A stretch of 64,000 bases of DNA from Actinomycetales bacterium (GTDB taxonomy: Bacteria; Actinomycetota; Actinomycetes; S36-B12). Where the stretch lies: the NCBI GenBank assembly GCA_016125355.1, contig WGLX01000010.1:58402-122401 (forward strand). Direction: 5' to 3'. The notes under the pieces are model-generated. The model was not told where the DNA came from. It saw only the letters and a list, made by a program, of their open reading frames with translations, and searched no databases. Positions 7,186 to 62,421 of the stretch are shown here, in pieces (position 1 is the first letter of the stretch; each line of letters begins with the position of its first letter). The translations under genes were made by a program, and so were the position numbers.

Positions 7186-7194
7186 CGGCAATGC

Positions 7195-7226
7195 GAAGGG
7201 GCCCTCGCGTGGGCGAGAGCCCCTTC
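7195..7226. terminator. Hairpin between convergent genes
   Basis: GAAGGGGCCCTCGC-GTGG-GCGAGAGCCCCTTC imperfect inverted repeat. Confidence 0.6.
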
Positions 7227-7244
7227 CCACGTGCTGTCGAACGA

Positions 7245-8759
7245 TCAGGTCACGCGGTAGGAACGCGTCACCGTGTACGGATTCCACTGGCCCGGCACGC
7301 CCGGAGCGGTGCCCTTGACGTTGCACTGCCCCTTCTTGATCATCTTCAGCTTGACCGCACCGCTGCTCGGGAACTTCAGCTTGCAGATGCTGTTCTTGCC
7401 CTTGGTGATCTTCCAGGTGATGTTCTGGCCGGCATTGGTGTCCACCTGCGCCGGGCTCTCCAGCGCCAGGGTGCGGCCCTTGTTGACCGAGCCCGACGGA
7501 GGAGCGTCGAGCAGCGCCGTCTGGTTCCCGGGGATCAGCGTGATGGTGTAGCCGTACTGGACGGCCGCGTAGCCGTTGCCGCCAGGGCTGTACGACGTCA
7601 TGTTGCACTGTCCGGATCCGACGGGAACGGTGATCGTCAGGCCGGACACGGAGCACGGCCCGGTCTCGCCGATCTGCACCGGCGCGCCTGAGAGGGACGA
7701 CGCCTGGAAGGTGAAGTTCGAGCCGTTGCCCAGGGTGTACGAGCCGCCGTTGACCCACGGTCCCCAGCCCGGCTGGACGAGTGTGATCACGTCCTTCTGG
7801 ATCGGGCCGGCCACGATGGTGACCTTGTCGCTCGTGGAGCCGGACTGGCCGCCGTTCGTGGTGTAGCTGGCGCCGAGGGTGGCCGGGCCCGGTGCGGTCG
7901 GCGTCCACGTGAAGGACGCTCTGCCATTGACGATCGGGATGCTGGCGCTGATCGGCTGGCCGTTGACGGTGAAGCCGACAGAGCCCTGGATGCTCGACGG
8001 AACGAGCGTGGCGACGAGGGTCACCGGTACGCCGACGGTCAGGGTGCCAGGCGCTGTGAGGGTGATGGTGCTGCCGCTTCCGCTGGCATTGATCGCGTCC
8101 TGCTGCGACGTCGAGCCCGTGGCGGTGCCGTCACCTTGGTAGGTGGCGGTGAAGATGTACGTGCCCGGTGCCTGCGGGGTCCACCACCAGTAGGTGTACG
8201 ACTTGCCGGGACCGTTCGCCGTCAGGCCGTTCGTGGACACGACGTTGCCGTTCTGGTCGGTGAACACCACGTTCCCGGTCGGGGAGTATGTGCTCCCACC
8301 CAGCATCGTCACGTTCGCCTGGATCCGCGTGGCCGTGCCCACCTTCGCGTTGTTGGGCGCGGCGATCGTCGTGTAGGTGCCGCCCGTCGACGCGAAGTTG
8401 AGCTGGATCGTGTTCGACTGCGACTGGGCCACCCCACCCGTGTCGTAGGCGACGGCGGTGAGGTTGAGCGGCGAACCGGACTGCGGGACCGAGAAGCTCA
8501 GGTACTGCGGTGACTGGGCGCCGAAGCCGAGTTGGACGTTGGCCCAGCTGGTGCCGAACTGATCCTGCAGCGACAGGTAGCCGTCGGAGAAGGACCCCGT
8601 CACCGTGTACGTGACCGTCGAGTTGATGGTGGCATTCGACGGCCCGGTCATGGACAGCGTCACGGGCGCTGCCTGCGCCGGAGCGGCGGATGCCAGCCCC
8701 CCGGCAACCAACGCGATGGCCGCGGCGGTGGCCGCCGCGGCTCGCTTCAGCGTGAACAT
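7245..8759 (-). CDS. Secreted Ig-like (Big_3-type) repeat protein
   Basis: Sec signal peptide (KR, Ala-rich stretch, AQA); Thr/Ser/Gly-rich beta repeats (PTGNVVFTD, FTATYQGD, GSVGFTVNG, LGASY); Lys-rich C-terminal domain. Confidence 0.7.
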   Translation of the reverse strand: MFTLKRAAAATAAAIALVAGGLASAAPAQAAPVTLSMTGPSNATINSTVTYTVTGSFSDGYLSLQDQFGTSWANVQLGFGAQSPQYLSFSVPQSGSPLNLTAVAYDTGGVAQSQSNTIQLNFASTGGTYTTIAAPNNAKVGTATRIQANVTMLGGSTYSPTGNVVFTDQNGNVVSTNGLTANGPGKSYTYWWWTPQAPGTYIFTATYQGDGTATGSTSQQDAINASGSGSTITLTAPGTLTVGVPVTLVATLVPSSIQGSVGFTVNGQPISASIPIVNGRASFTWTPTAPGPATLGASYTTNGGQSGSTSDKVTIVAGPIQKDVITLVQPGWGPWVNGGSYTLGNGSNFTFQASSLSGAPVQIGETGPCSVSGLTITVPVGSGQCNMTSYSPGGNGYAAVQYGYTITLIPGNQTALLDAPPSGSVNKGRTLALESPAQVDTNAGQNITWKITKGKNSICKLKFPSSGAVKLKMIKKGQCNVKGTAPGVPGQWNPYTVTRSYRVT

Positions 8760-8888
8760 GCGCGACTCCTCGAGGTGGGCAATGTGGTCACGCTATCCGG
8801 AAAGCGGTGCCGTAGCCGGCCCGACACATCGCGATGCGCGGTTGGCTGTCGGGGTGACGGTGAGCGTGAGGTAGAGTTCCAGCGCTTC

Positions 8889-8960
<72 letters not shown>

Positions 8961-8997
8961 CCGAAGATCCCCGCCCGGCTGCGCGTGCAGCCCGATC

Positions 8998-10953
8998 ATG
9001 AGGAGTGGACCGGTGGTCACAACCGCCCAGGACCTGGTGGGCGGTGACCGGTCGGTCGTCGTCGCCCGCATCAACGGCGAGATCAAGGACCTGGCCACCC
9101 CCGTCACGGACACCGATGTCGTCGAGCCGGTGACCGTCGACTCCCCCGAGGGCCTCGCCGTCCTGCGCCACTCCACCGCGCACGTGCTGGCCCAGGCCGT
9201 CCAGGAGGCGTTCCCCGAGGCCAAGCTCGGCATCGGGCCGCCGGTCAAGGACGGCTTCTACTACGACTTCGATGTCGCGACCCCGTTCACCCCGGAGGAT
9301 CTCGCCGAGCTCGAGAAGCGGATGGTCCGCATCCTCAAGTCCCGCCAGCGCTTCGCGCGGCGGGTCGTGACCGAGGAGGACGCCGTCCGGGAGCTTGCGC
9401 ACGAGCCCTACAAGCTGCGGCTGATCGGCAGTGAGGGCGGCGCCGACGTGATGGAGGTCGGCGGCGCCGAGCTCACCATCTACGACAACATCGACGCCAA
9501 GTCGGGGGAGCGCTGCTGGGGCGACCTGTGCCGGGGGCCGCACGTGCCCGACACCGGCTACATCCCGCCGAACGCGGTGAAGCTGATGCGCACGGCCGCC
9601 GCGTACTGGCTCGGCGACCAGAAGAACGAGCAGCTCCAGCGCGTATACGGCACTGCATGGCCGTCGAAGGAGGAGTTGCGCGCCTATCTCACCTTCCTGG
9701 AGGAGGCCGAGAAGCGCGATCACCGCAAGCTCGGTGCCGAGCTCGACCTGTTCAGCTTCCCGGAGGAGATCGGCTCGGGCCTGGCGGTCTTCCACCCGAA
9801 GGGCGGCGTGGTCCGGCGGGTCATGGAGGACTACTCGCGGCGTCGGCACGAGGAGGCCGGCTACGAGTTCGTCAACAGCCCGCACATCACCAAGGGCGCG
9901 CTGTTCGAGAAGTCCGGGCACCTCGACTGGTACGCCGAGGGCATGTACCCGCCCATGCACCTCGACGCCGACATCGACGAGAGCGGCAACGTTCGCAGGC
10001 AGGGCGCGGACTATTACCTCAAGCCGATGAACTGCCCCATGCACAACCTGATCTTCGACGCGCGCGGCCGCTCCTACCGGGAGCTGCCGCTGCGGTTGTT
10101 CGAGTTCGGCACCGTGTACCGCTACGAGAAGTCGGGCGTGGTCCAGGGACTGACCAGGGCCCGCGGCTTCACCCAGGACGACGCACACATCTACTGCACC
10201 AAGGAGCAGATGGCCGACGAGCTCGACCGGCTCCTGACCTTCGTCCTCGATCTCCTCCGCGACTACGGTCTCTCCGACTTCTACCTCGAGCTGTCGACCC
10301 GCGACCCGGAGAAGAGCGTCGGCACCGACGAGGTCTGGGAGGAGGCCACCGAGACCTTGCGGCAGGCGGCGGAGCGACAGAACCTCGAGCTCGTCCTCGA
10401 CGAGGGCGGCGCCGCGTTCTACGGTCCGAAGATCTCCGTCCAGGCGAAGGATGCGATCGGTCGCACGTGGCAGATGTCCACGATCCAGGTCGACTTCAAC
10501 CTGCCCGAGCGCTTCGGCCTGGAGTACCAGGCGCCGGACGGCAGCCGGCAGCGACCCGTGATGATCCACCGCGCGCTGTTCGGGTCGATCGAGCGGTTCT
10601 TCGCCGTGCTCCTGGAGCACTACGCCGGCGCCTTCCCGCCCTGGCTCGCCCCGGTGCAGGTGGTCGGCATCCCGATCAGTGATGCGCACAACGCCTACCT
10701 GCATGAGGTCGCGGCCCGCCTGCGCCAGCGTGGTGTTCGCGTGGAGGTCGACACGGCCGACGAGCGCATGCAGAAGAAGATCCGCAACGCTCAGCGGGCC
10801 AAGGTTCCGTTCATGCTCATCGCGGGCGACGACGACGTGGCCGCCGGTGCGGTGTCCTTCCGCTACCGCAACGGTGAGCAGAAGAACGGAGTGCCCATCG
10901 ATGCGGCGGTCGACGAGATCGTGGCTTCGATCGAGACGCGCGAACAGGTCTGA
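8998..10953 (+). CDS. thrS: Threonine--tRNA ligase
   Basis: [44 protein letters not shown]. The start may be GTG 9013. Confidence 0.97.
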
Positions 10954-10954
10954 G

Positions 10955-11467
10955 ATGACGGACGCCTGGGAACGGCTCTACACGCCGCACCGCATGGTCT
11001 ACCTCCGGGGCGAGAACAAGCCAAGCGATGATGCCGCCGGTGGGGGCTGCCCGTTCTGCCGGGCACCGGAGCTGCCTGATGACGAGGGGCTTGTCATCGC
11101 GCGGGGTGAGGAGGTGTACGCGGTGCTGAACCTCTATCCGTACAACTCCGGGCACCTCATGATCTGCCCCTACCGCCATGTGGCCGACTACTCCGAGCTG
11201 ACGCCGTCGGAGGTGGCCGAGCTCGGCGCCTTCACGCAGCAGGCCATGCGCGTCGTGCGGTCGGTCTCGGGAGCCCACGGGTTCAACATCGGCATGAACC
11301 AAGGGTCGGTCTCGGGTGCGGGGATCGCCGGCCACCTGCACCAGCACGTGGTGCCCCGATGGGGCGGCGACACGAACTTCCTCCCCGTCATCGGTGGCAC
11401 CAAGGTCATTCCCGAGCTGCTCAGCGATACGCGGACCCTGCTGGCCGACGAGTGGAAGGCGGAGTGA
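10955..11467 (+). CDS. HIT domain protein (Ap4A phosphorylase-like)
   Basis: CPFC, NLYPYNSGHLM, GAGIAGHLHQHVVPRW (HxHxH); conserved position after thrS. Confidence 0.92.
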   Translation: MTDAWERLYTPHRMVYLRGENKPSDDAAGGGCPFCRAPELPDDEGLVIARGEEVYAVLNLYPYNSGHLMICPYRHVADYSELTPSEVAELGAFTQQAMRVVRSVSGAHGFNIGMNQGSVSGAGIAGHLHQHVVPRWGGDTNFLPVIGGTKVIPELLSDTRTLLADEWKAE

Positions 11468-11468
11468 C

Positions 11469-11912
11469 ATGGCGACGTTCCTGACCCACGACGAGGAGCC
11501 GTCCCGCGCCTTCCTCTCCCTCGTCGGAGTGCGGATCCTCCGCGTGGATGACCCGGATGCGGCGGAGGTGATGCGCGACGTGCTCGGTGACAGCACCCAG
11601 GAGCGCGGTCGCATCGTCGCCGACCCGCCCGCGGATGCCGCCGCCTCGGACGAGGGGATGGGGGCGTGGCACATCAACGCGTGCAATGAGTTCGAGACGG
11701 TCGTAAGCGGCGAGGGGATCCTCGAGTTCATGACCGACAAGGGTCCCGTGGCCGTGCTGCTGTCGGCTGGCGACATCATGGCCGTCGAGCGGGCCGAGCA
11801 CCGCTACCGCCCCGTGACGCCCCAGGAGTGGGTGCTGCGGTTCGCTGCGGATGATCTCGGTGCGGTGGACACCGGGCGCGAGTCGGGCCCCTGGCCGCAT
11901 CTGCCGGTTTAG
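11469..11912 (+). CDS. Cupin protein, acireductone-dioxygenase-like
   Basis: WHINACNEFETVVSGEG...LSAGDIMAV...AEHRY cupin motifs; ATG 1 nt after the HIT stop codon. Confidence 0.6.
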   Translation: MATFLTHDEEPSRAFLSLVGVRILRVDDPDAAEVMRDVLGDSTQERGRIVADPPADAAASDEGMGAWHINACNEFETVVSGEGILEFMTDKGPVAVLLSAGDIMAVERAEHRYRPVTPQEWVLRFAADDLGAVDTGRESGPWPHLPV

Positions 11913-11943
11913 CTTCAGCTACTGGCGCCGGCGCCTCTGCCCA

Positions 11944-14610
11944 TCAGTCGGACAGGTCGTCGAAGCGCAGGTTGCCCCGGAACTGCAGCAGGAGAGCGAC
12001 GACCGCTGTCCAGCCCGTCTGGTGGCTCGCGCCGAGCCCGTGCCCGTCGTCGCCGTCGAAGTACTCGTGGAACGGTATGAGGTCGCGCCAGTGCGGATCG
12101 TCCTGGAAGTAGTCGTTCGCGCCAAGCACAGGCCGCCGTCCGTCGTCGTCCCGTACGAGGAGCCCGGTCAGGCGCCTGGCCATCTGATCGGCCACCTCAG
12201 CAAGCGTCACCTGCCGATCCGAGTCCGAGGGATCGGGCACCGTGAAGGTGTCGCCGAAGAAGCGGGCATATGAGTTGATGGACTGCACGAAGAGGAAGTT
12301 CATCGGCATCCACAGGGGACCGCGCCAGTTGGAGTTTCCGCCGAACATGCGGGTGCGGGATTCCGCGGGGGCATAGTCGACGCTGAAGTCCTGGCCGGCC
12401 GCATGGAACACGTACGGGTGCTCCCGGTGGTAGCGCGACATGGACCGCAGGCCGTGGGGCGACAGGAACTGCTCGGGATCGAGGACCCGCTCCAGCATGC
12501 GGCGTAGGCGGTAGTGGCCGACGACGCCCACCATGACGTGGCTGCCGTCGCCCCCCGACAGCCGCATGGGGGCGTAGTCGTCTCCGAGGTCGAAGGCAGC
12601 GCGCAGGCGCGTCATCGTCTCGCCGATGGTGGCGAGCGCCTCGGTGGCATCGACCGGCACCGAGATGCCCGCGAAGAGAGGCACCACCCCCTGCATCGAG
12701 AAGACCTCCAACGTGGTCGTCTCGCCGCTGGGCCACTCGATGACGTCGTGGTAGAAGCCGGTGCCCTCGTCCCAGAACGAGACGTTCCCGACCCCCGACT
12801 CGAGGGGTGCGGAGATGAGCCACGCGTCCCAGACCCAGCGCCCGAGCAACCGGAGGTAGCTGGGGAAGTAGTGGCCCAGTTCGATGGCGATCTCGAGCAT
12901 CTGGACCACGAGCGTGGCCATCCAGGCCGTCCCGTCTACCTGGTCGAGGGTGCCTCCCGTCGGCAGGGGCTGGTCGCGGTCGAAGACGCCCACGTTGTCC
13001 ATGCCGAGGAAGCCGCCTCCGAAGACTCCGCGATCCGAGGAGTCCTTCTGGTTGAGCCACCAGACGACGTCGAAGATGACGGCCCGATAGGCGGTCGCGA
13101 GGAAGGTCACGTCGCCGACGCCCCGCTGGCGTCTGTCGAGCTGGTAGACCTGCCACGCCGCCCACGCGTGCACCGGGGGGTTGGTGTCGCTGAAGGACCA
13201 CTCGTAGGCCGGGATCTGGCCGTGCGGGTGCTGGGTGGTGGACGAGAGCAGGATGAGCACCTGCTCCTTCGCCAGGTCGGGGTCGACCAGCGCCAGCGTC
13301 ACGCAGTGGAACGCGAGGTCCCACGCGGCGAACCACGGGTACTCCCACGCATCCGGCATCAGCACGACGTCCGCCATCGCGAAGTGCTGCCAGTCGCTGT
13401 TGCGGCCCTGCCACCGGGAGGCCGGCGGGCTGGGCTGGCCGGGGTCGCCCTTGAGCCAGCGGCGCACCGCGTAGTGGTAGTACTGCTTGCACCAGAGCAG
13501 ACCGGCCAGGGCCTGGCGCTGCACGAGGCGCTCGTCCGGGGACAGGTCCGGCGCCGCGAGGTCCGCGTAGAAGTCATCAGCCTCGGCCGCCCGGTGGGCG
13601 ATCACGTCGTCGGCGTCGTCGAACGGCAGGGTGAGATCAGCCGTGCCGAGCCGAACGGTGATCGTCATCGACGACCCGCCGGCAAGGGAGGCGGTCACGA
13701 GACCCGCGACCTTGCTGCCCTCGTTGAGGCTGACCGCGTCCTGGTCCCCGCGGACGACGTACTGGTCGATGCCGTCCTTGGTGGTCGCGGAGGCGTTGGC
13801 GGAGCCGAACAGCTCGGCGTTGTTGGTCTCGTTCTCGCAGAAGACGAGGGCGGGCCGCTCGTCGACGGATGAGGTGACGAAGAGCCAGCGATCGCCGAGG
13901 TGCGGGTGCGTGGTCGTCGCGACCCCGGGCCGCACCGGGCGGATGCGCGGAGCCGGGGCCTTCGGACCCTGCCAGGTCCAGGTGTTCCGGTACCAGAGCT
14001 GGGGGAGGGCCGTGATGGTCGCCGCGTCGGCCCCGCGGTTGGTGACGGTGATCCGGCAGATCACCTCCTCAGGAGTGGGCTTCGCGTACACGACCTCCAC
14101 GTCGAAGTAGCGATCCGCAAGCCAGTCCTCCCGGAGGGCGTCGAACAGCTCGTACTCGGGCTGTTCGGGACCGCGGACGCGATTGGCCTCCACGAGGTCG
14201 TCGTAGGGAAACGGCGCCTGCGGGTACTTGTAGACCATAGCGGCGTAGGCGTGGGTGGGCAGGTTGTCCGTGTAGAACCAGTAGTCCTTCACGTCCTCGC
14301 CATGGTTGCCCTGCGCGTTCGACAAGCCGAAGGGCCGCTCCTTGAGGATCGGGTCCCGCCCGTTCCACAGCGCCAGGCCGAGGCACAGCGTCTGGTCCCG
14401 GTCGCACCAGCCCGCGAGGGCGTCCTCGTTCCAGCGGTACGCCCGGCTCCGCGCGTGCTCGAACGGGAAGTAGGACCATGCATCCCCGTCCTCGCTGTAG
14501 TCCTCGCGGACGGTGCCCCACGCGCGCTCGCTGACGTACGTGCCCCAGCGCCGCCAGTCGGCAGCCCCGGACCGCGCCTCCTCGAGGCGTTCGTGCTCGG
14601 CCGTGGTCAT
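11944..14610 (-). CDS. Glucosidase, GH63/MGH1-like
   Basis: WRRWGTYVSERAWGTVREDYS, GNHGEDVKD, WEYPWFAAWDLAFH, GGNSNWRGP, FHEYFDGD, GASHQTGWT; start MTTAEHER at 14610. Confidence 0.9.
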   Translation of the reverse strand: MTTAEHERLEEARSGAADWRRWGTYVSERAWGTVREDYSEDGDAWSYFPFEHARSRAYRWNEDALAGWCDRDQTLCLGLALWNGRDPILKERPFGLSNAQGNHGEDVKDYWFYTDNLPTHAYAAMVYKYPQAPFPYDDLVEANRVRGPEQPEYELFDALREDWLADRYFDVEVVYAKPTPEEVICRITVTNRGADAATITALPQLWYRNTWTWQGPKAPAPRIRPVRPGVATTTHPHLGDRWLFVTSSVDERPALVFCENETNNAELFGSANASATTKDGIDQYVVRGDQDAVSLNEGSKVAGLVTASLAGGSSMTITVRLGTADLTLPFDDADDVIAHRAAEADDFYADLAAPDLSPDERLVQRQALAGLLWCKQYYHYAVRRWLKGDPGQPSPPASRWQGRNSDWQHFAMADVVLMPDAWEYPWFAAWDLAFHCVTLALVDPDLAKEQVLILLSSTTQHPHGQIPAYEWSFSDTNPPVHAWAAWQVYQLDRRQRGVGDVTFLATAYRAVIFDVVWWLNQKDSSDRGVFGGGFLGMDNVGVFDRDQPLPTGGTLDQVDGTAWMATLVVQMLEIAIELGHYFPSYLRLLGRWVWDAWLISAPLESGVGNVSFWDEGTGFYHDVIEWPSGETTTLEVFSMQGVVPLFAGISVPVDATEALATIGETMTRLRAAFDLGDDYAPMRLSGGDGSHVMVGVVGHYRLRRMLERVLDPEQFLSPHGLRSMSRYHREHPYVFHAAGQDFSVDYAPAESRTRMFGGNSNWRGPLWMPMNFLFVQSINSYARFFGDTFTVPDPSDSDRQVTLAEVADQMARRLTGLLVRDDDGRRPVLGANDYFQDDPHWRDLIPFHEYFDGDDGHGLGASHQTGWTAVVALLLQFRGNLRFDDLSD

Positions 14611-53870: not shown

Positions 53871-53985
53871 CAAGCGAGCTCGGTCTCCGCTCGCTTCGTG
53901 CCCCGGGTGATCACTGCGCTCAACCCGTGACACTCGCTCGGGATGACAAGCGAGCTTGTCCTCCGGTCGCTTCGTGCCCCGGGTG
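53864..53985. repeat. 46-bp direct repeat duplicating the tRNA-Leu 3' end and downstream hairpin
   Basis: 53864-53909 and 53940-53985 match at 42 of 46 positions, with a 30-bp spacer. Confidence 0.85.
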
Positions 53986-54048
53986 GGATTCGAACCCACA
54001 CTGGACGGTGTTTGAGACCGCTTCCTCTGCCGGTTGGGATACCGGGGC
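53975..54048 (-). tRNA. tRNA-Leu(CAA)
   Basis: Reverse complement GCCCCGGTATCCCAACCGGCAGAGGAAGCGGT-CTCAAAC-ACCGTCCAGTGTGGGTTCGAATCCCACCCGGGGCA; short-variable-arm Leu tRNA divergent from pdtaR, as in other Actinobacteria. Confidence 0.92.
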
Positions 54049-54089
54049 GCGTGGCCAAGGGTAGCCGTCTGCCGCCCTAGGCTGGGGGC

Positions 54090-54686
54090 ATGACCTCGAG
54101 CAGCAAGCCGCCGGTGACCGTCCTGGTCGCCGAGGACGAGGCTCTCATCCGTATGGACCTCGTCGAGCTGCTGGGGGAGTGCGGCTACGAGGTCGTGGCC
54201 CAGGTCGCCGACGGCCAGGCGGCCGTCGAGCAGACGCGCCGGCTGCACCCGAATGTGGTGTTCATGGACGTGGCCATGCCCAAGCGGGACGGCCTCTCGG
54301 CGGCCGAGGAGATCATGGCCGAGGGGCTGGCTCCCGTGGTCATGGTCACCGCCTTCAGCCAACGGGAGGTGGTCGAGCGGGCCACGGCCGCCGGCGTGCT
54401 GGGCTACCTGGTCAAGCCCTTCGGACGGGCCGACATCGTGCCAGCCGTCGAGGTCGCGGTGGCCCGCTGGGAGCAGATGCGCCAGCTCGAGCAACAGGTG
54501 GCCGGCCTCCGGGAGCGGCAGGAGGCCCGGGAGGTCGTGGACCGCGCCAAGCGCCTCCTGGAGTCCCGCCTCGGGCTGAGCGAGCCGGAGGCCTTCTCGT
54601 GGCTGCGACGGACGGCCATGGACCGTCGGGTGACCCTTGCGGAGGTTGCCGCCACGGTCGTGGCCCAACCCCCTGAAACGGCATGA
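54090..54686 (+). CDS. pdtaR: ANTAR-domain response regulator (PdtaR-like)
   Basis: VAEDEALIRMDL, MDVAMP, TAFSQR, YLVKPF; ANTAR segment RAKRLL...SEPEAFSWLRRTAMDRR. Confidence 0.9.
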   Translation: MTSSSKPPVTVLVAEDEALIRMDLVELLGECGYEVVAQVADGQAAVEQTRRLHPNVVFMDVAMPKRDGLSAAEEIMAEGLAPVVMVTAFSQREVVERATAAGVLGYLVKPFGRADIVPAVEVAVARWEQMRQLEQQVAGLRERQEAREVVDRAKRLLESRLGLSEPEAFSWLRRTAMDRRVTLAEVAATVVAQPPETA

Positions 54687-54756
54687 AACGGGCCCGTAAG
54701 GTCACAGAATGGTCACGATGCACCAACGAAGTAACACCGCGAAACCCTCGTGTAAC
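54675..54756 (+). promoter_or_regulatory. GlnR-box-like array upstream of the ABC substrate-binding gene
   Basis: GAAAC 54675 and 54685; GTCAC 54701 and 54712; GTAAC 54731, GAAAC 54741, GTAAC 54752; 10-11 bp spacing within each group. Confidence 0.5.
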
Positions 54757-54823
54757 GGACTGTCCCCTAGGGTGGCCGCAATGCGACGGCAGCCGCCGTC
54801 GTTTGTCCTTCTAAGGAGACTGC

Positions 54824-56200
54824 ATGAAGCGCACAACCGTCCTCAAGACGGCTGCGGTGCTGGGCGTGGCCTCGCTTGCTCTGGCGGCCTGCAGTAGCAG
54901 CAGCAGCAGTGAGTCCACTCAGGCGAGCGCAGCCGCCAGCGAGGCACCCGCCTCCGAGATGGCATCCGAGGCGCCCGCCTCCGAGGCCGCCGCGGCGTCC
55001 ACGGGCACTCCGCTGTACCTGGTCGACGGCAACACCGGCAACGCGCTCGGTGAGAAGCTGCCGGCAGGCACCCTGAACGGCGTGAAGGGCACCATCCCCG
55101 GTGCCGAGAACACGCAGGACTTCAAGGATGCCCTGCTCGGCGTCGACCCGAACCTGATCGACTTCGCCTACGCGCCTGAGTCCTACGACGCCGTCATCCT
55201 GGCTGCCCTCGCGGCCGCCAAGGCCGGCTCCGACGCGGGTGTCGACATGGCAAAGGAGATGGTGCCGATCACCAACGGCACCGAGGTCTGCAACGACTAC
55301 GCGGGCTGCATCGAGCTCCTGAAGCAGGGCAAGGACATCGACTACAACGGTCGTTCCGGCGCTGTGAACTTCTGGGCAGCGGGCGACCCGACGAGCGCCT
55401 CGATCGGCGTCTACCAGTTCGGTCCGGACAACAAGCTCCTCCCGGACGTCACGTACCAGCAGGGCGAGATCGTCCCTGAGGGCGACGCGAACCCGATCGA
55501 CGGCAAGCCGCAGGACGGCGCCGGCGACGGCGTGTTCAAGGTCGGCACCTTCCTGCCGATCACCGGCAACCTTGCCTTCCTCGGGCCACCGGAGGTCGCA
55601 GGCGTCAAGCTGGCGATCAACGACATCGAGGCCGCCGGCGGTATCCCCGGATTCAAGAAGGTCGTCCTCGAGGAGGGCGACTCCGGCGACACCTCGACGG
55701 AGACCGGCAAGCAGACCGTCAAGCGCCTGCTCCCGCTCGGTATCGACGTCCTCATCGGTGCAGCCTCGTCCGGCTCCACGCTCCAGGTCCTCGACGAGGT
55801 CACGGGTGCTGGCGTCATGATGATCAGCCCGGCCAACACCTCGCCGGCCCTGACCACCGCTCCGGACCACGGTCTGTACTTCCGCACCGCGCCGTCCGAC
55901 GTGCTCCAGGGCGCGTTCCTCGGCTCCCTCATCCTGCAGGATGGCTACACCAAGGTCGCCATCATGTCGCTGCAGGACTCCTACGGTGACGGCCTGAACG
56001 CCAACGTCACCAAGGCGATCACCGAGGGCGGTGGCGAGGTCGTCGCCAACGTCGTCTACGACCCGACGGCCGCTGACTTCGCCGCTGATGTGGCGAAGAT
56101 CAAGGCTGCCGGCCCGGAGGCGATCGTCCTGATCGGCTTCGACGAGTCCGCTCAGATCATCCAGGAGATGGTCAAGCAGGGCATCGGCCCGAACGCCTGA
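54824..56200 (+). CDS. Branched-chain amino acid-type ABC transporter substrate-binding lipoprotein (circularly permuted)
   Basis: Lipobox LAAC; LivJ-family motifs KVGTFLPITGNLAFLG, IGAASSG, SPANTS, FRTAPSD and DSYG, all in the C-terminal half; AAGGAG RBS. Confidence 0.9.
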   Translation: MKRTTVLKTAAVLGVASLALAACSSSSSSESTQASAAASEAPASEMASEAPASEAAAASTGTPLYLVDGNTGNALGEKLPAGTLNGVKGTIPGAENTQDFKDALLGVDPNLIDFAYAPESYDAVILAALAAAKAGSDAGVDMAKEMVPITNGTEVCNDYAGCIELLKQGKDIDYNGRSGAVNFWAAGDPTSASIGVYQFGPDNKLLPDVTYQQGEIVPEGDANPIDGKPQDGAGDGVFKVGTFLPITGNLAFLGPPEVAGVKLAINDIEAAGGIPGFKKVVLEEGDSGDTSTETGKQTVKRLLPLGIDVLIGAASSGSTLQVLDEVTGAGVMMISPANTSPALTTAPDHGLYFRTAPSDVLQGAFLGSLILQDGYTKVAIMSLQDSYGDGLNANVTKAITEGGGEVVANVVYDPTAADFAADVAKIKAAGPEAIVLIGFDESAQIIQEMVKQGIGPNA

Positions 56201-56214
56201 TCCAGCTCGACCCC

Positions 56215-56255
56215 GATGGGGGCCGCTCCTTCGGGAGCGGCCCCCATCACCTTTT
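56215..56255 (+). terminator. Rho-independent terminator
   Basis: GATGGGGGCCGCTCC-TTCG-GGAGCGGCCCCCATC, a 15-bp stem with a UUCG loop, followed by ACCTTTT. Confidence 0.85.
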
Positions 56256-56260
56256 CCGGT

Positions 56261-57139
56261 CTAGTGCTCGGCGCGGCTGGACAGGAGTGCCCCCACCAGC
56301 GCGAGTGCGGAGCCGACGAGGGCACCGGGTGTGGGCGTCTCATTTGCGAACGCCACCCCTAGAACGATGGCGACGATCGGGATGAGGTAGACGGCCGTGG
56401 CTCCCCGCGTCGCGCCTGCCCGGCCCACCAGGGTCGTGAAGGCCACGTACGCGACGCCGGTCGACAGCACTCCCAGAAGGATGACGGCGAGCGTGCTGCT
56501 GACCACGTGGGGCCCTCTGGTCAGATGCCGCGCCGACCAGAGTCCCAGGGGTGAGACGAGCACCAGGGCCACGATCATCGCGCGGAGGACCACGGCGAGG
56601 CCGCCATACCGCTGCTGGAGGGGCACGGCCAGGTTCACCGAGACCGAGTAGCAGGCCACGGCGATCAGGATCAGCGCGATGCCCCACGCCGAGGTGGGCT
56701 GGCTCCGGTCGATCGAGGACAGGGCGATGATCACGATGCCCGCGAAGCCGACGACCAGTCCGGCGACCTGCCGTCCCCGGTGTCGTCGGCGGAGGAGGTA
56801 CGCCGCCAGGGCGGCCGTCAGCAGGGGCTGCGCCCCCGTGAGCATGCCCGCGACGGAGGAGTCCACGGACTGCTGGGCGATCGGGAAGAGGGACAGCGGC
56901 ACCGCGATCCACAGGGTGCCGAGCAGGGCGATGCGTGGCCAGTCGGCCCTGGCCACCCGGACTCGCCGGGCCGCGGGTACGGCGGCCAGGACGAGCGCGC
57001 CGAACAGGATCCTCAGGAAGGTGATGAGCGCCGGGCTGAAGGTCTCCAGGCCGATGGCGATCATGAGGTAGGGAGCGCCCCACATCAGCGCCACCCCGAC
57101 GAACAGGGCCCACTCCTGCGCGCCGAAGGCTCCGGGCAT
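56261..57139 (-). CDS. DMT/EamA family transporter
   Basis: LMWGAPY, FLRILFG, VDSSVAGML, GLVVGFAGI, LGVLSTGVAY, YLIPIVA; about 10 TM helices; start uncertain (57139 or about 57208). Confidence 0.88.
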   Translation of the reverse strand: MPGAFGAQEWALFVGVALMWGAPYLMIAIGLETFSPALITFLRILFGALVLAAVPAARRVRVARADWPRIALLGTLWIAVPLSLFPIAQQSVDSSVAGMLTGAQPLLTAALAAYLLRRRHRGRQVAGLVVGFAGIVIIALSSIDRSQPTSAWGIALILIAVACYSVSVNLAVPLQQRYGGLAVVLRAMIVALVLVSPLGLWSARHLTRGPHVVSSTLAVILLGVLSTGVAYVAFTTLVGRAGATRGATAVYLIPIVAIVLGVAFANETPTPGALVGSALALVGALLSSRAEH

Positions 57140-57275
57140 GGAGCCGGTGCTCGTGCCGAGGATGCCTGGACGGGGCGTGCGGCCTGGGGTGTCGATGGGC
57201 GCCATCATGTCAGGGAGGCCGTCGCGCAACGGTCGCCCTGCTAGCGTGCCCGCAACGCCCCAGGAGGTCCGCGAC

Positions 57276-58187
57276 GTGTCCATCAGCCTGGACGGGCCAC
57301 TCGGTCCGCTGCCCACCCGGATCCTGCTCCCTGCGGACTCCGCCCTTCCCCGCGGAGCCACGAACGCCGCAGGCCCGCCCGCGGACGACACCCGGCGCGG
57401 GGTGGATTCGGCCGACGTCTGGACGGACCCGTACCTCAGCCCCCTCGTGACGCTGCGCGATGAGCGCGACGCGAACGCGTGGTTCCACTTCTGCCACGGG
57501 CACCACCTGGAGTTCCTGTACTGGGAGGCGACCATCGTCGCGTGCGACCGGGCGACCGAGGCGACGCAGGCCGGCGACCGCGATGTCGCGGGGGAGTGGG
57601 TGGACCGGGTGTGCACGCTCATCCGGGGCAGTGCGGCCATGCTGTCCTTCTGCGGCGCGTTCGACACCGAGGTCTACGACCCGCTGCTGCGCGTTTCGAT
57701 GGCGGCGCAACGGGATGACTTCAGCGGCGACATGTCGATCGACTTCCTGCGGATGATGAAGGCGAAGCACGCTCTCGTCAGCGCCCTCGGCGAGGCCGGT
57801 CTCGGGCATGCCCCCATCCGCCACGCGCTCTCCGACGCCGAGAAGCACTGGTACGCGCAGCATGGCGAGGTGGTGCTGGCGCTGCATCCAGGGGACTCAC
57901 TGCTCAAGGAGAAGATCGACGGCCTCAAGCGGCACAGCCCCGACTTCGACTACAAGGCGTACATCGACTCCGTGGTGCGCAGTGAGCAGGCCACCCGTGA
58001 CTACGACAGCTACTTCGGCGTCGAGCGGACGGACGACATCTCACCCGCCGACTACTGGACGCAGGCCGTGGCCAAGGTGGACGTCGTCCACCACCACTTC
58101 GAGCTGACGGAGGCGGATCGTCAGGCGCTGCTGCGGTGCGACGCCCTCCTGCTGACCATCATCGCCGAGCAGCTCGCCGGAGCCTAG
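57276..58187 (+). CDS. LmbB2/TyrH-like heme-dependent aromatic hydroxylase homolog
   Basis: WFHFCHGHHLEFLYW, RGSAAML, VYDPLLRVSM, FSGDMSIDF, QHGEVVLALHPGDSLL, YDSYFGVER resemble LmbB2-family blocks as recalled; AGGAGG RBS before GTG 57276. Confidence 0.65.
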   Translation: MSISLDGPLGPLPTRILLPADSALPRGATNAAGPPADDTRRGVDSADVWTDPYLSPLVTLRDERDANAWFHFCHGHHLEFLYWEATIVACDRATEATQAGDRDVAGEWVDRVCTLIRGSAAMLSFCGAFDTEVYDPLLRVSMAAQRDDFSGDMSIDFLRMMKAKHALVSALGEAGLGHAPIRHALSDAEKHWYAQHGEVVLALHPGDSLLKEKIDGLKRHSPDFDYKAYIDSVVRSEQATRDYDSYFGVERTDDISPADYWTQAVAKVDVVHHHFELTEADRQALLRCDALLLTIIAEQLAGA

Positions 58188-59059
58188 GCCTGGGCGAGGG
58201 TGCCGAGGTAGAGGTGCACGACCTTCGGGTCGGTGGCCAGCTGTCGACCGGTGCCCGTGTAGGCGTTGCGCCCCTGGTCGAGGACGTAGCCGCGGTCGAC
58301 GATCTGCAGGCAGCGCATGGCGTTCTGCTCCACGATGATGACGGTCACGCCGGTGGCGTTGATCTCCTTCACGCGGACGAAGACCTCATCCGTGAGCAGC
58401 GGGGACAGGCCGGCGGAGGGCTCGTCGAGCAGCAGCACCGACGGGTCCATCATGAGCGCGCGGCCCATGGCCACCATCTGGCGCTCACCACCGGACAGCT
58501 GGCCGGCTCGCTGGCCCCGGCGTTCGCCGAGGGCGGGGAAAAGGTCGCACACGAAGTCGAAGCGCTCCCGGAACTTCTTGGGCTCCTGGTAGCAGCCCAT
58601 CTCCAGGTTCTCCTGGATGGTCAGCGACGGGAAGACGTTGTTCGTCTGGGGGACGAAGCCGATGCCCATCGACACGAGCCGGTCGGCACGGACGTTGGTG
58701 ATGTCCTCGCCCGCCAGCGTGACCTGACCCGAGTGCACGCGCACGAGGCCGAAGAGCGCCTTGAGGAGCGTCGACTTGCCCGCTCCGTTCGGGCCGATGA
58801 TGCCCACCAGCTCGCCGCGGCGCGCGTAGAGGTCGCAGCCGTCGAGGATGTTGACCCCGGGGAGGTAGCCGGCGACGAGGTCATCGGCCACGATGACGGC
58901 TTCCTTCGCCCCCTCGATGTGCGCGTTCCGGTCGTTGATCTCGGAGTTGCTGAGGGTGCGCGGCTCCTCCCGCTGCGCGGCGTCGAGATCGAGCGCCTCC
59001 TCGCGTTCGTGCTGGCTGACGAAGTGCGGGCGATCGCCCGGCAGCATGTCGTCGCTCAT
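58184..59059 (-). CDS. livF: Branched-chain amino acid ABC transporter ATP-binding protein (LivF-like)
   Basis: GPNGAGKST, LSGGERQMVAMGRAL, LLDEPSAGL, VEQN. Confidence 0.9.
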   Translation of the reverse strand: MSDDMLPGDRPHFVSQHEREEALDLDAAQREEPRTLSNSEINDRNAHIEGAKEAVIVADDLVAGYLPGVNILDGCDLYARRGELVGIIGPNGAGKSTLLKALFGLVRVHSGQVTLAGEDITNVRADRLVSMGIGFVPQTNNVFPSLTIQENLEMGCYQEPKKFRERFDFVCDLFPALGERRGQRAGQLSGGERQMVAMGRALMMDPSVLLLDEPSAGLSPLLTDEVFVRVKEINATGVTVIIVEQNAMRCLQIVDRGYVLDQGRNAYTGTGRQLATDPKVVHLYLGTLAQA

Positions 59060-59964
59060 GTGCCACTCGCCTCCTCGGTGAAGGACACGCCGCTGTCAGT
59101 GAGGGCCTTGTCGTGGTGGCCGCCCAGGTAGGCGCTGATGACTGCCTCGTTCCGCATGACCTCGCCAGGCGGTCCCTCAGCGATCACCGAGCCCTGGGCC
59201 ATGACGATGACCCAGTCGCTGATGTCGCGGACGACGTCCATGTCGTGCTCGACGAACAGCACCGTCATGCCCTGTTCGCGTAGGCCCTTGATGTGCTCGA
59301 GGAGCGACTGGGTGAGGGCGGGGTTCACGCCGGCCATCGGCTCGTCGAGCATGACCATGGTGGGATCGGTCATCAGCGAGCGGGCCATCTCGAGCAGCTT
59401 GCGCTGGCCGCCGGACAGCGAGCCCGCGAAGTCCTCCCGCTTCTCCAGCAGCTTGAAGCGGGCCAGCAGCTCATCCGCCTGGGCCGTGACCGTCTTCTCC
59501 TGGCCGCGCCAGAGCCCGAGCAGCGCCTGCAGCATGCGTTCGCCGACCTGGTGAGTGGCGCCGAGGCGCATGTTGTCGATGACCGTCATCTTCGACAGGG
59601 CCTTGGTCAGCTGGAAGGTCCGGACCATGCCCATGCGGGCCACGCGGTAGGAGGGAACGCCCGCGAGATCCTTGCCGTTGAAGAGCCAACTCCCCGTGTC
59701 CGGGGTGTCGAACCCGGTGAGCAGGTTGAAGAAGGTGGTCTTGCCGGCACCGTTGGGGCCGACGAGGGCGGTGATGGATCCGCGCTGGATCTCCACATGG
59801 GAGACGTCGACGGCCTTGAGACCGCCGAAGCTCCTCGTGACGTGGTCGGCGACCAGGATGGGGTCGGGCTTCGGTACCCCCGGCTCGCGAGGCACGTCGG
59901 CGAGGATGCGCATGGCCTCCTCGTGCCGCGACATGGCTGCGGGCGTGCTGGCGTTATCGGGCAT
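59056..59964 (-). CDS. livG: Branched-chain amino acid ABC transporter ATP-binding protein (LivG-like)
   Basis: FGGLKAV, GPNGAGKTT, RTFQ, LSGGQRKLLE, LDEPMAG, VEHDM, AYLG. Confidence 0.9.
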   Translation of the reverse strand: MPDNASTPAAMSRHEEAMRILADVPREPGVPKPDPILVADHVTRSFGGLKAVDVSHVEIQRGSITALVGPNGAGKTTFFNLLTGFDTPDTGSWLFNGKDLAGVPSYRVARMGMVRTFQLTKALSKMTVIDNMRLGATHQVGERMLQALLGLWRGQEKTVTAQADELLARFKLLEKREDFAGSLSGGQRKLLEMARSLMTDPTMVMLDEPMAGVNPALTQSLLEHIKGLREQGMTVLFVEHDMDVVRDISDWVIVMAQGSVIAEGPPGEVMRNEAVISAYLGGHHDKALTDSGVSFTEEASGT

Positions 59965-60949
59965 CGAGCGCCAACTCCCTTCGATCGCCGAGGATTCCCT
60001 GTGGACGGTAGATCATCAGAAGCATCAGGCCCAAGCCCACGAGCATGACGCGGAGGACAGCAGCCTGGGTGCCGTCCATGAGCGACACGATGGGCACACC
60101 GGCGTCGATGGCCTGTCGCAGGAAGACGTCCGTGCCCTGGAAGAGGGCCCAGAAGATGACGGTTCCCAGGACCGGACCGAAGACGCGGGCCGCGCCGCCG
60201 AGGATCAGGATCGCGTAGGCGAAGAAGGTCGCATCCGTCTTGAAGGAGTCGGGGTTGACGTTCTGTGCGCCGACCGCGGTGATGAAGCCGGCCAGGGCAC
60301 CGAACAGGCCGCCCAGCACGAGGGCCTGCATCTTGTAGACGAACACGTTCTTGCCGAGGCTGCGGACCGCATCCTCGTCCTCACGGATGCCCTTCACCAC
60401 GCGACCCCAGGGCGAGCGCACGAGCAGCCACACCACCAGACAGGCCAGGGCGACGAGCGACCAGCCCACGATGTACGTGAACAGCTGGCTCTCGTTGACC
60501 ACGGCCGGCCCGATCCGCAGGTCTGCGTCTGGAGGCAGGAAATTCATGGCGAAGAAGCCGTCCGCGAACGCCTGCTTGCCGTCCGAGCCGCCGAAGAAGT
60601 CCTTGAAGGTGACGGACCGCAGGATGAGGCGGATGATCTCGGCCGCGGCAATGGTGACGATGGCGAGGTAGTCGGCGCGGAGCCGCAGCGTGGGCACACC
60701 GAGCAGCAGGGCCAGGATGACAGCGCCGATGAGGCCGAACACGACACCCCACCAGAAGCTCATATTGAGCTCGACGACGGTCACGGCCACGGCATAGCCG
60801 CCCACCGCCATGAACGCCGCCTGGCCGAAGTTGAGCAGGCCCGTGTAGCCGAACTGGACGTTGATGCCGATGGCCGCGAGGCCGAAGACGATCGCCTGCA
60901 GGCCGAAGGCCGACGTGACCATCACCGCGAAGATGTAGGACCAATCCAT
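59954..60949 (-). CDS. livM: Branched-chain amino acid ABC permease (LivM-like)
   Basis: GYTGLLNFGQAAF, LRLRADYLAIVT, SPWGR, IREDEDA, RPQGILG. Confidence 0.9.
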   Translation of the reverse strand: MDWSYIFAVMVTSAFGLQAIVFGLAAIGINVQFGYTGLLNFGQAAFMAVGGYAVAVTVVELNMSFWWGVVFGLIGAVILALLLGVPTLRLRADYLAIVTIAAAEIIRLILRSVTFKDFFGGSDGKQAFADGFFAMNFLPPDADLRIGPAVVNESQLFTYIVGWSLVALACLVVWLLVRSPWGRVVKGIREDEDAVRSLGKNVFVYKMQALVLGGLFGALAGFITAVGAQNVNPDSFKTDATFFAYAILILGGAARVFGPVLGTVIFWALFQGTDVFLRQAIDAGVPIVSLMDGTQAAVLRVMLVGLGLMLLMIYRPQGILGDRRELALDAR

Positions 60950-60959
60950 GTCAAACCCC

Positions 60960-62243
60960 CTAACCGATGCGCTCTCGGCGGCCGAGGAGGCCGTACGGAC
61001 GGACGAGCAGGATGACGATCAGCACCAGCAGGGCTCCGACGTTCTTGAGCTCGGTGGGGACGATCAGGGTCGTCAACTGGATGAACAGGCCGACGACAAG
61101 GGAGCCGAAGATCGCGCCGGCGATCGTGCCGAGGCCACCGAGGGTGACGGCGGCGAAGACGAGCAGCAGGATCTGGAAGCCCATCTGGAAGGACACCTGC
61201 TGGGTGAAGCCCAGCAGCATGCCGCCAAGGCCGGCGAGGGCTGCGCCGATCACCCACACGAAGGTGATCACGCGCTCGACGTTGATGCCCGCGCCGGCGG
61301 CCAGGCTGGGGTTGTCGGACACCGCGCGCGTGGCCTTGCCCAGCCGGGACTTGCTGAGGACCAGCACCGTGGCCACGAGGGCGAGGATCGCCGTGATGAA
61401 GATCCCGATGTCCGTGGGGGTCACCGATACCGGGCCGATCGACATGCCGGCGAGTCCGGCGTACTCGGTGTACGACTTCTTGTCGCCGCCGACGAAGAAC
61501 TGGAACAGGTTGCGCAGGAAGAGGGCGAGGCCGATCGAGACGATCATCATGGCGATCAGGCCGGTCCCGCGTTTGCGCAGCGGTCTCCATAGGGCTGCGT
61601 TGTTCAGCCAGCCGAAGGCCGCTGACAGCAGCAGGCCGCCGATGGCGGCCAGGAAGAAGTTGAGGCCGAGGCCGGCGTTCAGCACCCAGGTGGAGAGGGC
61701 GCCGAAGGTGATGATCTCGCCGTGGGCGAAGTTCACCAGTCCGGTCGTGCCGTAGATGATCGACAGGCCCAGCGCGCCGAGCGCGATGAGCAGGCCGAAC
61801 TCGAGTCCGGACACAGTCAGCTGCGCTGCCTGCTCCCAGACCGAGGTGGTGGTGGCGGTGCTCTGCCCGAGCGGGAAGGTCACCGTCTTCAGGCCGTTGA
61901 ACAGGGGCGGCTTGACCGGCACCTGCTCGATGGTGACCTTGTCCTCCTCGGTGAGGGCGACGCCCTCCGGCAGGGTGCTGACGTCGATGGTGACGTCGTA
62001 GTTGCCCAGTGCCGGGACGGGTACCTCCCACTTGCCATCAGGTCCGCTGGTAGCCGATCCCTCGAAGCCGTTGCCGGTGACGGTGATGACGACGCCCTCC
62101 ACCGGCGTCTTCTTCCCATCCACGCGGTTCTCGAGCTGGCCGCCGATCCGCTCACCGTCAGCCGCCGCCGGGTTGGCGAAGGCCAGAAGTGCGACGAGTG
62201 CGACGAGCACGGCCCCGAGGGCGGCGGTCACGCGTCGGTGCAC
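60960..62243 (-). CDS. livH: Branched-chain amino acid ABC permease (LivH-like) with N-terminal extracytoplasmic domain
   Basis: ALGLSIIYGTTGLVNFAHGE, RAVSDNPSLA, VTLGGLG, RPYGLLG; start taken as GTG 62243 after a GGAGGA RBS. Confidence 0.88.
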   Translation of the reverse strand: MHRRVTAALGAVLVALVALLAFANPAAADGERIGGQLENRVDGKKTPVEGVVITVTGNGFEGSATSGPDGKWEVPVPALGNYDVTIDVSTLPEGVALTEEDKVTIEQVPVKPPLFNGLKTVTFPLGQSTATTTSVWEQAAQLTVSGLEFGLLIALGALGLSIIYGTTGLVNFAHGEIITFGALSTWVLNAGLGLNFFLAAIGGLLLSAAFGWLNNAALWRPLRKRGTGLIAMMIVSIGLALFLRNLFQFFVGGDKKSYTEYAGLAGMSIGPVSVTPTDIGIFITAILALVATVLVLSKSRLGKATRAVSDNPSLAAGAGINVERVITFVWVIGAALAGLGGMLLGFTQQVSFQMGFQILLLVFAAVTLGGLGTIAGAIFGSLVVGLFIQLTTLIVPTELKNVGALLVLIVILLVRPYGLLGRRERIG

Positions 62244-62421
62244 GCTGCGCGCTCCTCCCATGGTCGTTCCGGACGGCATCGGAAGATGCGCCTCGGCTAA
62301 TGGACTTCGGCAGCATATCCACCGAAACGGCGCGCGCACCCGGTATCGGGAATGCAACGAGTTACGGTTTCGTTGCTTTTGGTTCACATGCCGTGGTCGG
62401 CGCGCCCGCGGCTGGATGCGG

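Follow-up and report, generated by a model that had tools for sequence, protein, structure and literature searches.

A putative heme oxygenase of the TyrH type from a separate clade, its gene paired with an EamA-type permease gene in a small insert in the genome of an Actinomycetales bacterium

The window analysed here is a stretch of 64,000 nucleotides (64 kb) of contig WGLX01000010.1 from an Actinomycetales bacterium (GenBank assembly GCA_016125355.1). At 57276-58187 of its forward strand, it carries a gene for a heme oxygenase of the TyrH/LmbB2/SfmD family, identified by its open frame, its motifs, sequence and profile matches in the Protein Data Bank (PDB) and its fold, and assigned to what is called below the "HF/RDD" clade. 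The encoded protein of 303 amino acids (P0001) contains, in an uninterrupted frame and in this order, the blocks WFHFCHGHHLEFLYW, LIRGSAAMLSFCG, VYDPLLRVSMAAQRDDFSGDMSIDF, QHGEVVLALHPGDSLL and YDSYFGVER. All five are present in the translation, as they had been listed in an earlier inspection of the letters of this DNA (hereafter, the sequence-only reading). Directly upstream, on the opposite strand, a divergent partner gene (56261-57208; start ATG-ATG at 57208) specifies a permease of the EamA/DMT type, 315 amino acids long, with ten transmembrane segments and two repeats (Pfam EamA, 3.9e-35). The 67 bp between the two start codons (57209-57275) are presumed to be a shared promoter region. 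The two genes make up an insert of 1.94 kb (56247-58183), of which the flanks are conserved in relatives from the same genus but the stretch itself is not.

The oxygenase gene was taken to start with the GTG at 57276. A Shine-Dalgarno-like AGGAGG, read directly from the sequence, is located at 57262-57267 of the forward strand, separated by a spacer of 8 nt from that codon. The N-terminus ("LPTR..LP.DS") is conserved, and the starts of the homologues fall within a few residues of that of P0001. Because of this AGGAGG and the starts of the homologues, the 303-residue model is favoured over one that begins at an upstream ATG at 57138. The frame has a GC content of 0.90 at third codon positions (GC3), which is a composition of the coding type, and the opposite strand shows many stops across the 3' part of the gene. 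All 18 positions that are invariant amongst the full-length relatives in alignment A1 (see below) are kept in P0001. A sequence scan around the pair found neither a sigma-70-type promoter nor an intrinsic terminator. In a search of sequencing runs, all the sampled words of the stretch were found in two DNA runs, which may stem from the source samples, and a share of 0.22 in one soil run.

With phmmer, P0001 matched amongst the PDB sequences the heme-dependent L-tyrosine hydroxylase of Streptomyces sclerotialus, in entries 7kqr (E 1.2e-6) and 8r2s (E 1.1e-5). A profile made from 37 full-length relatives (A1) matched the same TyrH entries with 2.2e-19 and 2.2e-18, respectively, and SfmD, the 3-methyl-L-tyrosine peroxygenase of entry 6vdp, with 1.3e-9. 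The AlphaFold2 model calculated from A1 (pLDDT 91.9; pTM 0.90) retrieved TyrH chains at the top of a Foldseek search, with E values from 4e-6 (7kqu) to 1.6e-4. Pairwise comparison of the model with 7kqu by VIA-align gave a Z score of 20.9 at an rmsd of 3.6 over 231 aligned residues (8-299 of the model and 22-307 of the chain); lower scores were obtained with tryptophan 2,3-dioxygenase (TDO; 2nw9, Z 10.9), MarE (9ca3, Z 10.9) and SfmD (Z 8.8). P0001 is truly homologous to the tyrosine hydroxylases with a His-ligated heme, and the similarity is far beyond chance. The homology to LmbB2/TyrH claimed in the sequence-only reading is, therefore, borne out by sequence, profile and fold matches, and in the structure comparison which that reading had proposed, both Foldseek and VIA-align put TyrH first, with lower VIA-align scores for SfmD and TDO.

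A word-indexed search of 5.8 billion proteins returned 58 matches, 57 of which carry a precomputed assignment to PF27188.1, the remaining one being a chimeric frame with a glutamine-synthetase-III domain. When 1.84 billion representatives were searched exhaustively with phmmer, 66 proteins came out at E<=1e-3, including 24 at <=1e-10 and nine at <=1e-30. PF27188 is named "SfmD_perox" in the protein atlas, and the clade is already filed in databases under this family; its nearest atlas clusters bear the automatic name "L-tyrosine 3-hydroxylase (family protein)". The homologue clade comprises at least 57 protein clusters, the closest homologues (P0003-P0006) being 61-64% identical to P0001. The canonical clade is represented by P0096, which matches 7kqr over its full length (E 1.2e-73). 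On stored proteins of this canonical clade, we could confirm the LmbB2 motifs that the earlier inspection had given: WFRWITGHQV.F..W, GYSAML.Y, VY..VIRPSM..QHPAFSG.WA.D[FY], H..IA.KLVP...SLL and YD.YF.T.RA, in the same order as the blocks of P0001. In distant relatives, fused forms also occur, where the TyrH-like domain is C-terminal in a longer protein (P0081, 789 aa, with the domain at residues 535-748; P0086, 533 aa; P0114; P0115). Five distant full-length relatives (P0071, P0074, P0077, P0078 and P0080) end in Ala-Ala (..LAA, ..RAA or ..KAA).

The residues that would carry out catalysis are conserved. H76 (codon at 57501-57503, forward strand), the distal (acid-base) histidine, corresponds to position 88 of 8r2s_A in an ungapped alignment and is invariant in all 61 rows of the alignment used for the tree described below. 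In TyrH, Compound 0 receives its proton from H88 on the distal side (bioRxiv 10.64898/2026.04.24.720734), and both H76 and TyrH H88 correspond to H95 of the LmbB2 motif R90-W91-x3-H95 (PMC3851162). H196 (57861-57863, forward strand), the putative proximal heme ligand, aligns with the histidine of "VIHAGIA" in TyrH and of "HIGVC" (HxxxC) in SfmD and is invariant over the same 61 rows; His313 of SfmD (in HxxxC) stays bound to the heme as an axial ligand (PMC8179489). Both TyrH and SfmD use H2O2, and also O2 with a reductant (PMC11791213; a bioRxiv abstract). The two histidines which had earlier been considered retained are, thus, aligned with their TyrH and SfmD counterparts and not misaligned. 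The codons for Y134 to R139 (YDPLLR; 57675-57692, forward strand) specify a putative clamp for the alpha-carboxylate, Y134 and R139 being invariant in all rows; we liken these two residues to the Tyr/Arg pair of TDO, which we take to be a carboxylate clamp. The positions invariant in A1 include H76, F80, Y134, R139, M142, F149, H196, L209, D244, F247 and R251, and these are kept across the three clades sampled. Over the 61 proteins, H76, F80, Y134, R139, F149, H196, S208, L209, D244, F247 and R251 are constant or nearly so.

SsTyrH, LmbB2 and Orf13 are heme-dependent L-tyrosine 3-hydroxylases of the lincomycin, pyrrolobenzodiazepine and hormaomycin pathways (PDB 7kqr-7kqu, 8r2s). P0001 has the same fold as these enzymes over nearly the full length, at a structure-based identity of about 20%, and is 31% identical to the TyrH-clade proxy P0096 over 147 aligned residues. 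It shares with TyrH, in the same order, the distal and proximal histidines, Y...R(P)SM, FSG, SLL and YD.YF..R. Unlike TyrH, it has HF for RW, C73 for I, H77 for Q, RDD for HPG/A, SGDM for SGxW and W192 for N/S, and its gene stands beside one for a DMT permease, with no biosynthetic cluster around it. SfmD, the 3-methyl-L-tyrosine hydroxylase of saframycin biosynthesis (PDB 6vdp/6vdq), has the proximal histidine and the SfmD_perox family in common with P0001. The HxnHxxxC motif, typical for the c-type heme of SfmD, is nevertheless not present in P0001, where F157 occupies the position of the labile axial His274 and V200 that of the heme-linking Cys317 (SfmD residues as named in PMC8179489), and SfmD has an additional N-terminal half. 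In TDO (2nw9) and MarE (9ca3), the helical core with a His-ligated heme site is common to the P0001 fold, but only this core aligns (roughly residues 39-214 of the model) at 11-13% identity, and P0001 has no match with Pfam Trp_dioxygenase.

The evolutionary relations amongst these proteins were deduced from a maximum likelihood tree of 61 rows (quick IQ-TREE search, with a midpoint root for drawing only). P0001 and 20 other proteins form one branch of 21 rows with an SH-aLRT value of 100, of which the nearest neighbours are three "HW" proteins (99), and the canonical enzymes, including P0096, form a separate branch of 15 rows (99). By these sequence relations, P0001 is placed outside the canonical LmbB2/TyrH orthologues, in a separate, well-supported and uncharacterised clade. 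This is coherent with the earlier proposal of a diverged member of the family, and the residues beside the distal histidine are indeed altered.

The alterations define a signature. At positions 69-77, canonical W-F-R-W-I-x-G-H-Q is W-F-H-F-C-x-G-H-H in all 21 members of the HF/RDD clade. At positions 145-148, Q-H-P-G/A is x-R-D-D, where R146 and D148 are invariant and D147 occurs in 19 out of 21. At positions 150-157, S-G-x-W-..-D-Y/F is S-G-D-M-..-D-F (21 out of 21), while position 192 (canonical N/S) is W and position 248 (canonical L/M) is G, each again throughout the clade. The distal R-W-x3-H motif, extant in each of the 15 canonical proteins, is absent from P0001, which reads H71 F72 x3 H76, with H-F in each of the 21 clade members; the loop QHP[GA]FSGxW..D[YFH] is likewise missing, P0001 having QRDDFSGDMSIDF there, with M153 in place of W. 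Moreover, the clade has some 13 additional residues between the SLL and YD blocks as compared to the canonical enzymes. The substitutions R to H71, W to F72 and W to M153 are real at the level of the alignment; the "RW to HF, W to M" of the sequence-only reading is therefore right, and it is one piece of a wider pattern found throughout the clade.

Two further residues of the distal helix (P0001 residues 71-77; 57486-57506), C73 and H77, are one turn apart, on the other face than F72 and H76. They are conserved in the 21 clade members and also in the nearest sister proteins, the corresponding residues in TyrH being I and Q. C73 and H77 could serve as a further pair of ligands or provide a link to the heme.

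A pattern scan of 185,579 species genomes yielded nine close-clade loci, all in metagenome-assembled genomes (MAGs) of Solirubrobacterales. We determined adjacency in these and in metagenome loci by tblastn with the EamA protein of the window, not counting the fragment L037 or the loci L031 and L032, both of which begin within the gene. A divergent EamA orthologue is located directly upstream of the oxygenase gene in four of the nine genome loci (L002, L004, L006, L010) and in six of the 11 evaluable close-clade metagenome loci (L022, L023, L025, L027, L029, L034), where the match in L025 is a 58-residue fragment at the end of the contig. The pairing thus occurs in 10 out of 20 evaluable loci elsewhere, or in 12 out of 22 when the window and one further genome of the genus (G019) are counted, and its occurrence extends over two classes of Actinomycetota. 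Compared with the EamA protein of the window, those of the other loci have 49-52% identity, with 103 invariant columns; the oxygenases, at 46-52%, have diverged to the same degree. The orphan gene pictured in the sequence-only reading is, as stated there, diverged and without a biosynthetic cluster, but it belongs to the clade of 57 or more clusters and has a conserved EamA partner. The analysis of homologue neighbourhoods suggested in that reading showed the EamA pairing at part of the loci and varied neighbours elsewhere. We found no description of a transporter-linked orphan TyrH-like clade in the literature, a search whose coverage did not extend to subscription journals and the supplement of PSI-BLAST orthologues of the LmbB2 paper.

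In five of the loci (L010, L023, L027, L029 and L034), the intergenic DNA has a conserved stretch with an inverted repeat, TAGGGTT-N22-AACCCTA, which precedes the start of the oxygenase gene by some 30-60 nt. The repeat is without mismatch in L010 and L034 and slightly degenerate in the three others. The window and G019 share CTGCTAGCGT in their intergenic DNA instead. The conserved intergenic stretch could be an operator or could simply reflect close kinship.

In the loci that lack EamA, the neighbours include genes for a multicopper oxidase and a solute-binding protein (L005, L008), for PadR regulators (L003, L007) and for a beta-lactamase-fold protein (L009). The more distant relatives are found in contexts of aromatic metabolism. 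L011 (Gemmatales MAG; 7764-12904) has a 30%-identical relative of the R146/D148/W192 type. Upstream of it is a gene for an ECF sigma factor, and after it come those for an O-methyltransferase (with dimerisation domain), an FAD-binding oxidase and a DAHP synthase, an arrangement that resembles a compact pathway to a methoxylated aromatic compound. Amongst the canonical-type homologues, the one in L013 (Amycolatopsis pithecellobii; 5810-11740) has an aromatic amino acid ammonia-lyase on one side and, on the other, a caffeoyl-CoA-type O-methyltransferase together with a fusion of AMP/CoA-ligase and short-chain dehydrogenase/reductase (SDR), an arrangement that suggests a route from Tyr via DOPA to caffeate/ferulate-type compounds. 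L012 (Actinophytocola MAG; 5908-8666) has only the upstream ammonia-lyase in common with L013; elsewhere in that locus, the scanned neighbours comprise an SDR, a P450 and a permease of the EamA type.

Some of these neighbours bear on the question of whether P0001 is an ordinary L-tyrosine 3-hydroxylase that makes L-DOPA for use outside a cluster, for instance, for export and oxidation to a melanin-like pigment or a catechol. We regard this as possible, but not as the probable case. The multicopper oxidase of L005 and L008 is encoded about 600 bp upstream of the homologue, as would suit such a role, although these two loci look closely related and amount to one observation. The O-methyltransferase after the distant relative in L011, which shares R146, D148 and W192 with P0001, is what one would expect for a catechol, and a use in melanin production has been claimed for relatives of SfmD and Orf13/LmbB2 (PMC13394420). 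All the catalytic and amino-acid-binding residues common with TyrH are kept in P0001; the HF/RDD clade is nevertheless separate from the TyrH clade, and each of its 21 members has R to H71, W to F72, I to C73, Q to H77, H to R146, W to M153 and N/S to W192. A homologue with 50% identity, P0028, is named "L-tyrosine peroxygenase" at NCBI, which agrees with the L-tyrosine 3-hydroxylase of the atlas clusters, but the database names are automatic, and no NCBIfam model matches either P0028 or P0001.

In two other loci, the oxygenase homologue is part of a tight co-directional run of genes. In L028 (1455-4915), the run consists of a threonine-dehydratase-like enzyme dependent on pyridoxal phosphate, a TDO-like protein, an SDR and, last, the oxygenase; in L029 (487-4858), it is the same, with an EamA gene inserted before the oxygenase homologue. 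The run may be a small amino-acid-modifying pathway. Genes for a cysteine-desulfurase-like protein, an OsmC protein and a bicupin are located nearby. A kynurenine-pathway reading of the two loci was weakened, the "aminotransferase V" neighbour being cysteine-desulfurase-like and the hydrolase of the lipase/esterase type.

The TDO-like neighbour could nonetheless point to a substrate of P0001 derived from tryptophan (tryptophan itself, kynurenine or similar) rather than to tyrosine, an alternative that we consider unlikely. This context occurs in only two of the 20 loci, which are clearly related to one another, and the TDO-like protein scores 137.5 bits, far under the cut-off of 390.7 for TIGR03036; the neighbouring class-V aminotransferase, moreover, is not a kynureninase. 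Position 72, four residues before the distal histidine, is Phe in the HF/RDD clade and Trp in TyrH, as would fit this alternative; bacterial TDO presumably also has Phe at the matching position. TDO and kynureninase genes do occur elsewhere in the window's own genome, but no such genes are found near the oxygenase gene among the scanned open reading frames (ORFs) of the window.

The ORFs scanned across the window are all of the housekeeping or transport type. They include genes for the threonyl-, histidyl-, aspartyl- and alanyl-tRNA synthetases and EF-G, ruvC/ruvB, secD/secF and relA; a gene for a YceG-like protein, followed by the shikimate genes aroE, aroC, aroK and aroB; a gene for an M24 peptidase, efp and nusB; and genes for an ANTAR response regulator, a binding protein and four liv-type ABC proteins, as well as polA. 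None amongst them encodes a nonribosomal peptide synthetase (NRPS), a polyketide synthase, an extradiol/DOPA dioxygenase or another cluster protein, in agreement with the earlier statement that no DOPA dioxygenase, NRPS or cluster gene is nearby. With such housekeeping and transport surroundings, P0001 is not part of a DOPA-consuming cluster. Immediately beyond the insert, at 54090-56200, the gene for the ANTAR-domain response regulator is followed by that for a protein of 458 amino acids with a Peripla_BP_6 domain at residues 239-456 (profile positions 3-217 of 343), the N-terminal part of 238 residues being without a family. The ANTAR regulator, the binding protein and the liv ABC genes were rejected as functional partners of the insert because they are contiguous without it in a genome of the same genus (G010).

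The permease is placed by NCBIfam only in general terms, with no assignment at the equivalog level. Its matches there are all below the cut-off: TIGR00950 (carboxylate/amino acid/amine transporter) at 81.7 against 230.2 bits, YedA at 80 against 270, an O-acetylserine/cysteine exporter, and YddG with E 2.3e-4. No match with PDB sequences was found at E<=1.

The status of the two genes as an insert is apparent from comparison within the genus. In three genomes (G003, G010 and G021), the flanks of the insert (54000-56246 and 58184/58186-59998) are conserved at 77-81%. The site is empty in G010, with an intergenic gap of 211 bp (G010:C1 1325647-1325858); it is occupied by a glyoxalase/VOC-looking ORF in G003 (C4 48398-49524) and by a ComB-looking ORF in G021 (C1 604206-605099), both translations having been read by eye. 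Where the binding-protein gene and livF converge, the genus has a variable site. Synteny with G019 extends over 53973-62266 of the window, with 76.5% identity across 8456 aligned columns, and both genes of the insert are present there. G019 is the only one of 24 other genomes of the genus to have the oxygenase gene, and 16 genomes that represent other families of the order are all without it. Amongst 400 genomes spread evenly over the class, five have a match at E<=1e-10, the best of them 2.2e-21 as compared to 2.0e-121 for the window gene; these five weak matches occur in larger genomes of 4.8-9.5 Mb. No match at E<=1e-30 was found in 400 genomes drawn from the phylum. One database homologue comes from an Acidimicrobiales MAG. 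The best reading of the EamA-oxygenase pair is that of a horizontally mobile two-gene module.

Taken together, it appears likely that the window carries a TyrH-like oxygenase of a distinct subclade which, with EamA, makes up a mobile module, that the enzyme oxygenates a free aromatic L-amino acid and that the permease moves its product or its substrate. Of this interpretation, the homology, the fold, the kept catalytic residues, the separate clade, the conserved pairing and the insert are shown by the data, and we infer heme binding, the chemistry, the link with the transporter and the direction of transport. H196 would ligate the iron of heme b on the proximal side, and H76, on the distal helix, would act as the acid-base catalyst that generates a ferryl oxidant from H2O2 (or from O2 with a reductant, e.g., ascorbate). 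Y134 and R139 would hold the alpha-carboxylate of the free aromatic L-amino acid, the ring of which would become hydroxylated. The EamA/DMT permease would then most likely export the product; import of the substrate would be less likely. The conversion of L-tyrosine to L-DOPA is possible, and another aromatic amino acid about as likely, because of the systematically different residues beside the distal histidine; most of what remains would fall to an aromatic amino acid that is neither tyrosine nor of the tryptophan/kynurenine type. By its sequence and setting, P0001 probably differs in substrate and role from the tyrosine hydroxylases of antibiotic pathways, since the gene sits beside a transporter gene in a small insert among housekeeping genes.

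Several observations weigh against the interpretation of an active oxygenase paired with a transporter. The stored public call for the gene, P0002, has only 192 amino acids, from internal codon 112 ("CTLIRG"), and is without the helix of the distal histidine; it was likely shortened because of a long shadow ORF of the opposite strand (56261-57667), with which the oxygenase gene shares its 5' third. The search of sequencing runs found no RNA sequencing run that contains the stretch. A Pfam-A hmmscan with a library that lacks PF27188 assigned P0001 to no family, the single match being DUF5333 at E 0.23, and an NCBIfam scan gave none for P0001, nor for 10 homologues including P0028; these empty scans are due to the content of the libraries and not to the absence of a family. 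The EamA partner is missing in half of the 20 evaluable loci (10), so the pairing is frequent but not obligatory. The intergenic DNA between the EamA and oxygenase genes, moreover, is near-identical in L010, L023, L027 and L034, because of which the EamA-bearing loci are not independent.

Finally, the oxygenase gene of G019 falls into two separate frames, apparently through the deletion of a single base near codon 143. The split site (L016, G019:C14, at about 7790-7800) falls in the codons for "SMAAQRDDF", and the EamA gene next to it is intact, its product being 70% identical to that of the window over 282 residues. The split may signify a dispensable gene or pseudogene or, alternatively, an assembly error. 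It could be taken to mean that the oxygenase gene of the window, too, is a decaying or silent passenger without present function, the more so as the L034 copy is also split, the genomic site is variable and the gene is rare and patchy, with its single occurrence amongst the 24 other genomes of the genus. We nevertheless judge this very improbable: in the window, the frame is intact with all 18 A1-invariant positions kept, the ribosome binding site is strong, GC3 is at its coding-type value of 0.90 and the EamA partner gene is intact.

The clade is not categorically new. Its family, its fold and its likely chemistry are known; what is new is the pairing with a transporter, its recurrence at other loci and the status as an insert. 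More speculatively, and with more doubt than confidence, the HF/RDD clade might catalyse a reaction new to the superfamily of heme-dependent aromatic oxygenases, on an amino acid other than tyrosine (of the tryptophan or kynurenine type, or with an amino-substituted ring), where it would form with the DMT permease a self-contained mobile unit to make and secrete, or to import and modify, and where C73/H77 would be a new cofactor feature.

To our knowledge, nearly all the heme-dependent tyrosine hydroxylases known so far catalyse first steps of antibiotic and antitumour pathways. Engineering work also aims to use these enzymes as bacterial peroxygenases that yield L-DOPA, melanin and indigo. 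The clade described here keeps the catalytic machinery, changes the distal pocket and travels with a transporter rather than with a cluster, which suggests a function in the physiology of the cell other than classical secondary metabolism. P0001, with its 303 amino acids, soluble by prediction and requiring no partner reductase if H2O2 is used, is a candidate enzyme with a possibly new substrate scope.

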